Shown: piece after piece, positions 12,001 to 15,000 of the stretch
How positions within the stretch are numbered: position 1 is the first letter of the stretch
Layout: each line of letters starts with the position of its first letter
From: a virus
Taxonomy: Duplodnaviria > Heunggongvirae > Uroviricota > Caudoviricetes
IMG/VR virus record: IMGVR_UViG_2700989509_000007
Direction: 5' to 3' (one strand)
DNA length: 15,711 nucleotides
Made by a program: the position numbers

Positions 12001-15000
12001 CCTGCGCCTCCTCATTGCCAGCCATTAATTGCCAGTCACGCTGATAACGCTCGATGAGTTTTTTCTTGTCAGTTTCTGTTGACGCATAATCGCTGAAGTC
12101 TTTCAGGATTTGTTCGCAGTCAACCGATGGAGATTTCTGGTTGGTATTTTCTGGTGATGGTTTGTTATCTGATGCTGGGATTGCCCATCCCGGCAGCGAT
12201 GGAGGAAGCCAGTAAAATCCTGTTCCATCCTTCAGTTTTGCCCTGTGCCACCCCTGCTTTTTATCGAGAGATGTTTGTGCGAAACCTTCCTCAAGGTTAT
12301 ACAGATACCGACCGATTCCCCACTGAACGGCAGCACGCTTCATTGCACCGGAACGACCACCTTTTACGGCTTCTACCTGCGTGTTTTCAGCAGCATCCCA
12401 TTTGGTTACCCATTCGGAATCAATCCTGATTGATATGCCGCATTCAACGCCTCCGTTGTTGGGAATATCGCGGTATTCATTGCGCCATCCTGCTTTGCCG
12501 CAAACATCGTCCAGGCGTTTCATGATTGCCCTGTTCGTGACATAAGCCAGCACCATAGCCCACACCTTGCCATCGCGTGTTTTACCGCTTTGCTGTATTC
12601 GCCATTCGATATCTTCAGGGCAGAATGGCTCATCGAATTTGTTCAAATCCATAATTCACCTCAGAATGGACACGGCCCAAGGAAATAACGCTGATTTAAT
12701 ACTTCAGTCTTTGCCGCATTTAAAAATACGCGAACACCTTCACGATCTCCCTTCTGGCGATACATTAACGCCTGCTGCGTGTACATGCGTCTCTGTAACT
12801 TGCTCTCCTTCACTGTGGTTGCAAGTGACATGAATATCTCCTTCGTTACCGATTAAATCTTTCATCTGACGAATGAATTCTTCGTCTGACCAGTTATCTG
12901 TAAAACTCATTTCCTGCGATACCACGGAAGGTTGATAGCTGATTTCATCGCTTTATTTGCTTCAAGCCACATTTTGGAATCACCAATAAATCGGGCTATT
13001 ACTGCTTTGTTCTGTGCAGCACGAAGCATCTGGTGATTAATGGCTATTTCATTGCGCATAACGCCTCCAGTTGTTTCTTTGCTGCTCTGATTAATTGTTT
13101 AACTCGGCGTGATAATTCAGATTCGTGCGGGTAGAAAGCGGACATGACGCCGCTACCCGCGAGCTGAAAGTGCATCATGGGTAACTCCTTATATTTGATT
13201 GCATAACGAAAACGCCTCGAGTGAAGCGTTATTGGTATGCGGTAAAGCCGCGCTTAGGCGGCTGATGTTTCTTCTTTCAGGCTTTCGAGATATTTACGTG
13301 GGTCGTCGTAACATTGGCATTCGCTGTACCAATCCACCCAGCGATCAGTAAGCCCCATCTCTGATAAATCTTCATCGGTAAGGCTCTCATCCCACATCTC
13401 AAGGCCGTTAGCATTGCAGTAATCAGGCTTGATGTTGTTGTCATACTGAAAGGCGTCATAATCAGCCAGTGCGTCCATCAGACGAACACCCTCTTCAACA
13501 CTTGCCACTTCTACAATGAACGGCTTCATAGGTACTTGCGGGATATGCCAGACACGTAATTTCATATATCCTCCGTCAAAAAAATTGCCCTCACACTGGA
13601 GGGCAAAGAAGATTTCCAATAATCAGAACAAGTCGGCTCCTGTTTAGTTACGAGCGACATTGCTCCGTGTATTCACTCGTTGGAATGAATACACAGTGCT
13701 TATTCGTACTAATAAAATACCCAATTTTCTGTTTCTTGGTTGTGTCCAAAGTTATATTCAATATCTGGTGTTGATGTATCAATATTCTTCATACCATCAA
13801 CAAGAGTTGATACAACAGCCAAATCTTGTTTGATTCTCATTAAATGGTATTTCTTCCGGCGCAATAAACTTTCAATGGCAAGTTTCTTCGTTGGGAATGC
13901 AAAAGATCTTTCTGCATTTTTTGCTACTTTCTTAATTGCATATCTATTTCTCCTTTGTTTCCATTCCTGTAACCACTGATTTGGTGCTGGTTTAAAATTA
14001 ACAATCCAATGCGCAGGAACCAACCATGCATAATGCTCTGTCTGATGAAAAGCTATATATTGAAGTGCGAATATTTTTATCCCATCTTCTTCAACTGTCG
14101 CCTGGAATCTCCAGAAAACAGGCATTCCATCATGTTCAGTTTCTGATTCAGGAAAAGGTACGCTCCATGATTTTGTCATATCTCACCTCAAATAAGTGGT
14201 TTGCTGCCTAATTTCATTTTCTGGCGACCGACACAGGTCACACCCATTTCACTGCGTGGCTTGCTGTAGTAAATACGGTTCTGTTTACGCTCGACTTCTT
14301 CTGCCTTCTTGCAGCGAAGGCTTCCGAGTGATATTGCTTTTTCAGAAAGGCTTAAACGCTTTCTTGGGGCCTCCTGAACAGGTTCCTCACTGTCTGTGCC
14401 GAAGATAGAATCAATGATGTTACAGATAGCATCACGCTCAATAGCAAGCTTTCTGCGCCGCTCATGACGGCGAGTTTTGGCATTTCCTGCAAATGTTGAT
14501 TTTCCGTACACGATTACCGTCATGATGTTTTCCTCATGTGAAATGGCTTTGGTGGTGATGCGCCAGATGCTGATCTTCTGGTTGCTGTCGTTGCAGCTGC
14601 AATTCACATCACCGCCAAACCCATCTCGTTTGGTATCTGTTTGCGCTTTGTCAGCGCCCCATCGAAGTTAAAGAGCCTGCCAATCTGTTCCGTTTGACTT
14701 CCAGCTTCCTGCTGATGGCTTAAAGATAACCTAGGTTATAGGTGTGGTCAATAACTTAATTTATAATTCATGGTAAATAAGTTATAAGTTATGGATAACA
14801 AAGGTATTTTATTTTTGTAAATGTTGAGGATGAAGGTAAGCGTACAGCGAGGGCCGTATTGACGGGGATGTGTTATTCAGCTGGCAGTGCTATGCGCCAC
14901 GGAAGCAGTTCGCTGACCCGGTTGACCGGCCAGTCTGCTATGACGCCAAGCACATGGCGAAGGTAGCTTTCTGGATCCACGTCATTCAGTTTGCACGTCC

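Follow-up and report, generated by a model that had tools for sequence, protein, structure and literature searches.

An intact lambda-like pL-oL-nutL-N region in an E. coli prophage, with a P22-type N antitermination site and gene and operators assignable to the HK639/PA28/SH2026Stx1 immunity group

In lambdoid phages, CI and Cro share operators. In phage 933W these are reported to be split into two OL and three OR sites. Five natural operator sites are described for this phage (PMC3317979), and for P22 the complex of the N peptide with its 15-mer boxB RNA has been solved (PDB 1A4T; PMC11480772). Here we analysed a window of 15,711 nucleotides (IMG/VR record IMGVR_UViG_2700989509_000007), a complete draft contig that ends inside an IS element; it contains none of the cognate cI, cro and nutR. 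We find that the window contains an ordinary, intact lambda-like E. coli prophage early-left control region (pL-oL-nutL-N). A repressor-controlled promoter appears to be followed by a P22-type N antitermination site and gene, and the operators seem to be those of a little-studied, already sequenced immunity type. The original prediction had claimed a complete N-antitermination module at this place, and indeed pL, the operators, boxA/boxB and N were all found where it had put them, on the minus strand, each recognised by identity or homology.

The boxB of nutL (14643-14657, minus strand) is GCGCTGACAAAGCGC = GCGCUGACAAAGCGC, a 5-bp stem with a GACAA loop, and this stem-loop is present in both the MFE and the centroid structures of the predicted fold. 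It had been called P22-type, and it is identical to the boxB of P22 nutL (alignment A2), with boxA and spacer nearly identical; it is the same 15-mer RNA as in the solved P22 complex. The boxA (GGCTCTTTAAC, 14667-14677, minus strand) is located 9 nt upstream of boxB; the inferred +1 precedes it by about 40 nt, and the start codon of N follows after 144 nt. Neither its core GCTCTTTAAC nor the TTCGATG spacer varies in P22 or in any of the relatives (A2). Relatives with identical N additionally contain a P22-type nutR downstream of cro, CGCTCTTTA...ACCGCCGACAACGCGGT. Between nutL and the ribosome-binding site of N we found a long leader hairpin (14540-14627, minus strand) with an MFE of -43.3 kcal/mol (z = -5.25), and none of 200 shuffles folds as well. 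The leaders of P22, PA28 and an O26 prophage, although otherwise diverged, also form a stem with a comparable base. The hairpin probably corresponds to the stem in the lambda N leader that RNase III processes, a role proposed by analogy with lambda. An Rfam scan of 14100-14900 matched no family, which is uninformative, as Rfam is not known to include a nut-site family.

The N gene (14188-14523, minus strand) encodes a protein of 111 aa of the N_peptide family (Pfam N_peptide, E=2.8e-26; PHROG 271 'anti-termination protein N-like', E=3e-46), and at least 24 public contigs code for exactly this protein. Over 75 residues (1-75) it shares 71% identity with P22 gp24, with two differing positions in residues 1-42, and the stretch GNAKTRRHERRRKLAIERD is identical in both. 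The expected P22-type arginine-rich motif was confirmed, as residues 14-32 (NAKTRRHERRRKLAIERDA) agree with the P22 N peptide at 18 of 19 positions (PDB 1A4T; PMC11480772). Lambda N of PDB 6GOV can be aligned with residues 14-111 (E=1.4e-7). N carries a P22-type arginine-rich motif at its N-terminus and a C-terminal third that resembles lambda N. Downstream of N and orf156 follows an intrinsic-terminator-like hairpin (13585-13606, minus strand; 8-bp stem with 5 G-C pairs, then TTTTTTT), which is a likely tL-like target of the N-modified RNA polymerase. A second terminator candidate (13211-13230) follows the gene-17-like exclusion gene, a position at which the P22 record annotates a terminator.

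The promoter pL (14723-14751, minus strand) consists of the -35 hexamer TTGACC (14746-14751), a 17-bp spacer and the -10 hexamer TATCTT (14723-14728). It is the sole sigma-70-like match of the promoter scan in 14100-14900, a number that is not significant alone (1 found vs 1.8 expected). The call is supported by its position 7 nt upstream of CATCAGCAGGA and by the same hexamer/operator layout at the pR of the relatives, TTGCTA-17-TATCTT (alignment A5): the overlap of the pL hexamers with OL1 and OL2 is exactly that seen at pR with OR1 and OR2. Five diverged lineages furthermore all have the same -10 hexamer and the same TTG in the -35 hexamer (alignment A4). The transcript start region CATCAGCAGGA (14707-14717, minus strand) is common to prophages of three other immunity types. 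We place the +1 at its A, at about 14716, by homology with the established lambda pL. Upstream of +1, the oL regions of P22, of the lambda-immune relative L010 and of the 933W-immune relatives are not alignable with the oL studied here, and the four immunity types (this one, 933W, lambda and P22) become alignable exactly at 14707-14717. From these alignments, the mosaic junction of the immunity module and the N/nutL module appears to be the pL transcription start itself.

Two operators were found at the promoter. OL1 (14726-14739; ATAACCTAGGTTAT) is an exact ATAAC-N4-GTTAT site and covers the -10 hexamer and the spacer, while OL2 (14751-14764; ATAAATTAAGTTAT on the minus strand) deviates by one mismatch and abuts the -35 hexamer; the two are spaced 25 bp centre to centre. 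OL1 keeps all ten half-site positions in five lineages, and its centre varies at two of four base pairs (A4). The ATAAA variant of OL2 is found with the same spacing in the O26 prophage type, PA28, S.Kent and HK639. Half-sites are invariant in all sites except OL2 and OR2, which have single variant bases, and the centres and flanks drift (A4, A5). The window contains two matches to ATAAC-N4-GTTAT with at most one mismatch, which is only weakly unusual, as 16 of 200 shuffles reach or exceed that number. Given this count and the non-significant promoter scan, one could regard the palindrome, which contains the AvrII site CCTAGG, as a chance or restriction-site palindrome that overlaps promoter-like sequence and is no operator. 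We give this reading next to no credence, and it is already contradicted by the comparative data. CCTAGG is not kept: the relatives have CCCAGG, CCTGGG, CCTAAG, CTTAGG or CTAAGG in the centre, and the outer ATAAC/GTTAT are invariant. Moreover, the motif is present three times at oR and follows one CI/Cro type without exception. In 301,465 bases of related sequence we counted 54 perfect sites vs 0.43 expected from composition, and all 54 are located either at oL or, between cI and cro, at one of the three oR positions. It is this comparison with the relatives, and not the window count alone, that gives the motif its significance, and we conclude from it that ATAAC-N4-GTTAT very much looks like a real operator motif. 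In all 14 relatives of the same immunity type, the three oR sites are spaced 24-25 bp between the divergent cI and cro.

Beyond OL2, isolated half-sites are present in 14772-14808 (minus-strand reading), namely ATAAC at 14781-14785 and GTTAT at 14795-14799. The five lineages all share the two pentamers, and the DNA between them diverges (A4). The segment 14772-14785 is a candidate for a weak OL3, 21 bp from OL2, a position at which HK639 has the near-complete operator ATCACATAAGTTAT. The segment 14795-14808 could similarly function as a further degenerate site. Full operators are evident at oL only twice; the third position is a half-site in this allele.

The motif is confined to loci with one CI/Cro DNA-binding type, in which CI starts with MKTFAERLNAAMS... 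and Cro with MN(L/K)VIQRAL..., and this type is linked to ATAAC/GTTAT half-sites 4 bp apart in every relative examined. All 14 relatives with this CI/Cro type contain the motif (CI 85% identical for PA28 and 83% for S.Kent). HK639, whose CI shares the N-terminal DNA-binding domain only and whose Cro is 84% identical, is among these 14. We detected no motif in relatives with 933W (L005, L006, L008), lambda (L010) or other (L002) immunity, and none in the phages 933W (L021) and P22 (L014). The palindrome had been described as unlike the operators of lambda, P22 and 434. For the first two this holds, with no site in the lambda-immune relative or in P22. The 434 operators have the form ACAA-N6-TTGT, from which the palindrome would likewise differ. 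The operator specificity hence appears to differ from those of lambda, P22 and also 933W, which the original prediction had not named. The further suggestion of a distinct immunity specificity is right in that the motif is missing from the lambda, P22 and 933W types, but the specificity is not new: the same operators and CI/Cro DNA-binding domains are present in the sequenced phages HK639, PA28 and SH2026Stx1. The operators of the window agree with the operator part of the definition of this immunity group. The immunity type is found in 154 of 5426 complete E. coli genomes (~3%).

Other assignments were considered and rejected. H-19B immunity was suspected from E. coli H19 among the matches. 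The H19 prophage is P22-like, with no stx annotated between the Q-like antiterminator gene and the lysis genes, and in the 933W record the CI of H-19B is called similar to 933W CI. The 933W immunity itself was suggested by a note in the PA28 annotation, but the 933W operators and CI differ (PMC3317979). The printed operators of the O104:H4 Stx2 phage BAA2326 are unrelated (PMC5977221). A search of the accessible literature for the operator strings found no paper printing them and returned irrelevant matches only. It is conceivable, at somewhat less than an even chance in our estimate, that this CI/Cro-operator pair has never been characterised biochemically, and that oL also works in a non-lambda way, with two full sites and two conserved half-sites (14781-14785 and 14795-14799) in place of three operators.

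Absence of the palindrome from related prophages with the same N and nutL had been proposed as evidence against a distinct specificity. Four prophages (L005, L006, L008 and L010) encode identical N and nutL, yet are without the motif. This is because they carry 933W or lambda immunity regions; the test was ill-posed and the specificity reading stands. As judged from these loci, the operator travels with cI/cro and not with N/nutL. The immunity-side module would then extend from 14717 to about 14835 and comprise pL, OL1 and OL2 with the consensus ATAAC-N4-GTTAT, and the N/nutL module would cover 14188-14716. We consider it very probable that the early-left region of this lambdoid prophage, with its repressor-controlled pL and N antitermination, consists of two independently exchangeable modules joined at the transcription start.

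On the other side, the region is bordered by the end of an ISEc8 element of the IS66 family (14836-15711, minus strand), whose terminal repeat starts with GTAAGCGTACAGCG and inside which the contig stops. Of its transposase gene the 3' part is present (14873-15697, minus strand; Pfam DDE_Tnp_IS66, E=4.6e-81) and reads towards pL. Four independent copies align from GTAAGCG onwards (A3), and in intact relatives the sequence at the insertion point (slash) is ...CATCAC/CTTCATCC.... Plasmid matches to the IS seemed to extend 16 bp into oL; we dismissed this extension as a chance-similar flank, as the copies agree only from GTAAGCG. OL1 and the IS end are 96 bp apart; the insertion is in non-coding DNA and would have left the control module itself intact. 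The repressor gene had been expected to the right, where the IS element now sits. Intact relatives do have cI on that side, 0.5-1.9 kb beyond OL1, but the IS is not in the cI position, and one to three accessory genes separate oL and cI in these relatives.

Since the contig ends inside the IS, nothing is visible beyond it, and the IS could mark the place where cI, cro and the remaining immunity region were lost by deletion or rearrangement. The module would then be a dead cryptic remnant or be silenced by a homoimmune repressor elsewhere. The exact oL-IS junction was indeed found in no complete E. coli genome or phage record searched, and IS66-family elements are numerous, with up to 46 matching places per genome, which favours IS-IS recombination. 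We nevertheless regard such a loss as unlikely. The IS end meets native sequence cleanly, and the phage DNA is collinear with the intact relatives, as in a simple insertion, and the reading frames of N, kil, cIII and the recombination genes are all unbroken. By analogy with lambda, expression of N and kil from an unrepressed pL would harm the host, so that a repressor is probably still present. The transposase gene, with its 3' end pointing at pL 37 bp from the IS end, also raises the idea that IS transcription now drives N independently of a repressor and that the sites are used mainly by Cro or another regulator. Cro of the group does co-vary with the motif as strictly as CI. Sites shared by both proteins, however, belong to the standard model and are no alternative to it, and a repressor at OL1 and OL2 would still stand in the way of such transcripts. 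We hold this explanation to be highly improbable and retain the repressor-controlled pL.

For the repressor-controlled region we infer the following course, from protein binding to terminator read-through. OL1 and OL2 would be bound by the dimeric CI, and by the Cro, of the HK639/PA28/SH2026Stx1 immunity type, the CI (235 aa) having an N-terminal helix-turn-helix domain and a self-cleaving S24 C-terminal domain. In the lysogen, repressor bound at -10 and -35 would keep RNA polymerase off pL, because the operators cover the -10 hexamer and abut the -35 hexamer. After repressor cleavage, transcription from near 14716 would give an RNA with boxA, followed by the boxB hairpin. N would be translated from 14523, and its P22-type arginine-rich helix would bind the GACAA loop of boxB. 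Together with the host factors NusA, NusB/S10 (at boxA) and NusG, N would make RNA polymerase resistant to terminators, presumably those that precede the exclusion, cIII, kil, recombination and integration genes.

In summary, the region can be labelled confidently as pL/oL, nutL and N, and its significance beyond annotation is small. The assignment to the HK639/PA28/SH2026Stx1 group predicts which phages a lysogen would exclude. The region is also an example of mosaicism, in which the same N/nutL is found with three immunity regions and the same oL with three antitermination devices (two N types and put RNA). As some Stx1 and Stx2a phages have this immunity type, work on the induction of toxin phages could profit from a defined operator consensus, although its derivation is routine.

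Compared with the known systems, 933W is linked to this locus by relatives L005, L006 and L008, in which 933W immunity is joined to the identical N/nutL. Its reported number of OL sites, two, also agrees with the two full sites seen here. It differs in its 15-bp operators, such as CGTACTGAAAGTACG, with an odd central base (three oR operators read), and in its CI, which is only about 26% identical. P22 has the same order of pL, boxA, boxB, leader hairpin and N. However, the C-terminal third of N aligns here with lambda N (ERKQNRIYYSKP...GRQKMKLGSKPLI), and the C-terminus common to the N proteins of P22 and 933W is a different one; the leader from boxB to N is shorter here than in P22, and the operators and pL are unrelated to the P22 oL. 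The locus is like lambda in its operators over -10/-35, the transcript start CATCAGCAGGA, nutL, the large leader hairpin, N and the terminators, and relative L010 joins a true lambda oL to the same N/nutL at the same junction. It is unlike lambda in its 14-bp ATAAC-N4-GTTAT operators (17-bp sites in lambda), in its GACAA boxB loop (GAAAA in lambda) and in that only two full OL sites are evident. A further known system is the immunity region of HK639, PA28 (Stx2a) and SH2026Stx1 (Stx1), in none of whose records the operators are annotated. HK639 differs in that its oL is coupled to the putL antiterminator RNA and not to N/nutL, and its CI has a C-terminal domain that is unrelated. Other N and boxB types are present in PA28 and the O26 prophage. 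All three phages share the operator half-sites, their number and their spacing at oL and oR, as well as the CI N-terminal domain, with Cro 84-100% identical. At the DNA level, the oL described here is 76-78% identical to those of PA28 and HK639 and 97.5% identical to that of SH2026Stx1.

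The pL-like promoter, palindromic operators, boxA/boxB and N gene of the original prediction are all present and, read on the minus strand, correct in every detail. The pL promoter consists of the -35 hexamer TTGACC (14746-14751) and, after a 17-bp spacer, the -10 hexamer TATCTT (14723-14728), followed by the transcript-start motif CATCAGCAGGA (14707-14717), boxA GGCTCTTTAAC (14667-14677) and boxB GCGCTGACAAAGCGC (14643-14657), which folds into a 5-bp stem with a GACAA loop. The palindrome ATAACCTAGGTTAT (OL1, 14726-14739) has a one-mismatch copy at 14751-14764 (OL2). A long and very stable leader hairpin (14540-14627, minus; -43.3 kcal/mol, z = -5.25) separates nutL from the N ribosome-binding site (Shine-Dalgarno GAGGA, N start at 14523, minus strand). 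The leaders of P22, PA28 and an O26 prophage have otherwise diverged, but they too form a stem with this base, GAGAUGGGUUUGG / CCAAAGCCAUUUC, and the nucleotide changes in the PA28 stem preserve pairing. The hairpin probably corresponds to the RNase III site of the lambda N leader. Terminator-like hairpins follow downstream of N at 13585-13606 and 13211-13230.

The assignment of boxB with its GACAA loop to the P22 type, together with a matching arginine-rich motif in N, was confirmed. From the transcript start through boxA, spacer and boxB, the region is nearly identical to the annotated P22 record, with boxB itself identical, and N residues 1-75 share 71% identity with P22 gp24, the arginine-rich motif being unchanged. 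PDB 1A4T is the solved structure of this motif with the exact 15-nt boxB RNA (PMC11480772). In its C-terminal third, N departs from P22: ERKQNRIYYSKP...GRQKMKLGSKPLI aligns to the RNA-polymerase-binding end of lambda N in the antitermination complex 6GOV, while P22 N and 933W N have a common C-terminus different from this one. N (14188-14523, minus) is itself a mosaic, P22-like from residue 1 to about 70 and lambda-like at its C-terminal end. In relatives whose N protein is identical, cro is followed by a P22-type nutR.

Across the 301,465 bases of lambdoid sequence examined, we counted 54 copies of the motif ATAAC-N4-GTTAT, compared with 0.43 expected from composition. All 54 lie either at oL beside pL or in the cI-cro intergenic region (oR), as members of a set of three at 24-25 bp spacing. 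The layout at pR mirrors that at pL, with OR1 over the -10 hexamer TATCTT and OR2 abutting the -35. We compared five diverged lineages, namely the window type, the O26 prophage, PA28, Salmonella phage S.Kent and HK639. OL1, OR1 and OR3 keep invariant half-sites throughout, and OL2 and OR2 show single variant bases. A chance or restriction-site palindrome is excluded, because the half-sites are kept while the central bases and flanks drift. On this comparative evidence, we take the palindrome to be a repressor operator. Two isolated half-sites at 14781-14785 and 14795-14799 (GTTAT-N9-ATAAC on the minus strand) are likewise invariant in all five oL lineages, with varying bases between them. One of the two is part of an almost complete third operator in HK639, at 21 bp from OL2; in the window allele its partner half is degenerate. 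The pair is a candidate weak OL3 or divergent-promoter site.

Ten other places encode exactly this N protein. Those with a CI starting MKTFAERLNAAMS and a 74-aa Cro carry the motif at both oL and oR. It is absent from those whose CI is identical to the 933W protein and from those in which CI and oL are lambda-type; their oL cannot be aligned with that of the window, and similarity resumes exactly at CATCAGCAGGA. Absence of the palindrome from prophages with the same N/nutL, proposed beforehand as evidence against an operator, is thus indeed seen, but it is a sign of module exchange and no argument against the operator reading. Conversely, the window-type oL is paired with another N and boxB in the O26:H11 prophage and PA28; in HK639 its partner is a putL antiterminator RNA. 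HK639 has the same operators and a Cro 84% identical to that of the group, although its CI has only the N-terminal DNA-binding domain in common with the group and a different C-terminal domain. The motif therefore tracks the DNA-binding domains of CI and Cro, as expected of a repressor-operator pair.

In the 933W-immune relatives L005 (9770-9810), L006 and L008, and in 933W itself, oL contains a long inverted repeat flanking the -35 hexamer, ACCAATAGTTC TTGATAAT(A/G)TC GAACTATTGGT, a layout very different from the window's; in the three relatives it is attached to the same N/nutL.

From 14836 to its end (15711) the window is taken up by one end of an ISEc8 (IS66-family) element. The contig ends inside this element, evidently because the repeat stopped the assembly. 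Across the insertion point intact relatives read CATCAC followed by CTTCATCCTCAACATTTAC, and in the window the IS end GTAAGCG is joined to the same CTTCATCC. The insertion lies 96 bp beyond OL1 and 36 bp beyond the last conserved half-site. The repressor gene was expected to the right, where the IS sits; the direction holds, since cI ends 0.5-1.9 kb right of OL1 in relatives, but the IS, rather than taking the place of cI, lies in the non-coding stretch that separates oL from the accessory genes following cI. The cognate repressor is probably still in the cell, because with N and kil intact, loss of repression at pL would presumably do harm. The transposase gene (14873-15697, minus) reads towards pL and N and stops 37 bp before the IS terminus, and read-through into oL is conceivable.

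The window is the complete draft contig JZEB01000051.1 (assembly GCA_000965715.1). On its minus strand lies a lambdoid prophage's left arm, comprising the integrase gene (4496-5740), ea22-like and antirepressor-like genes, an anti-RecBCD gene, ssb, a Rad52/Erf-type recombinase gene, kil, cIII, a P22 gene-17-like exclusion gene, a 156-aa gene and N. The 156-aa gene (13709-14179, minus), directly after N, matches no Pfam family and only PHROGs of unknown function (phrog_1636); it fills a variable slot occupied in relatives by genes for an Nmad5-domain or a DUF7446 protein, among others. Left of the integrase we find an OspG/NleH-like kinase-domain gene (1057-1947), a Peptidase_M91 (NleD-like) effector gene (2178-2876) and a second, different phage integrase (2973-4175). 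These genes suggest an adjacent prophage remnant that carries effectors, and a host that is an attaching-and-effacing E. coli or a relative of it.

By homology, CI dimers on OL1 and OL2 would block pL until RecA-stimulated CI self-cleavage allows transcription to start at about 14716. The boxA-boxB RNA would then recruit N and Nus factors onto RNA polymerase, and the polymerase, so modified, would continue past the tL terminators to transcribe the exclusion, cIII/kil, recombination and int genes. A probable role of the leader hairpin is to modulate N translation, like the RNase III site in lambda.

E. coli strain H19 is the classical host of the Stx1 phage H-19B. Its sequence (L015, 20001-24400) shows the window immunity type on a separate P22-like prophage, with no stx annotated between the Q-like antiterminator gene and the lysis genes.

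The suggestion of a distinct immunity specificity holds in that oL alignment and motif search separate these operators from those of P22 and lambda, and presumably also from those of 434. The specificity differs as well from 933W, whose studied operators are 15-bp sites like CGTACTGAAAGTACG (PMC3317979), and from BAA2326 (PMC5977221). It is, however, not new as sequence: Stx1 phage SH2026Stx1 has an oL 97.5% identical to the window's, about 22 phage records contain the CI/Cro type, and among 5426 complete E. coli genomes 154 have the window oL. The literature searched contained no paper printing these operator sequences, and the SH2026Stx1, PA28 and HK639 records annotate at most putative pL/pR and no operators. 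The immunity type is under-studied yet already present in sequenced phages, and the module itself is textbook.
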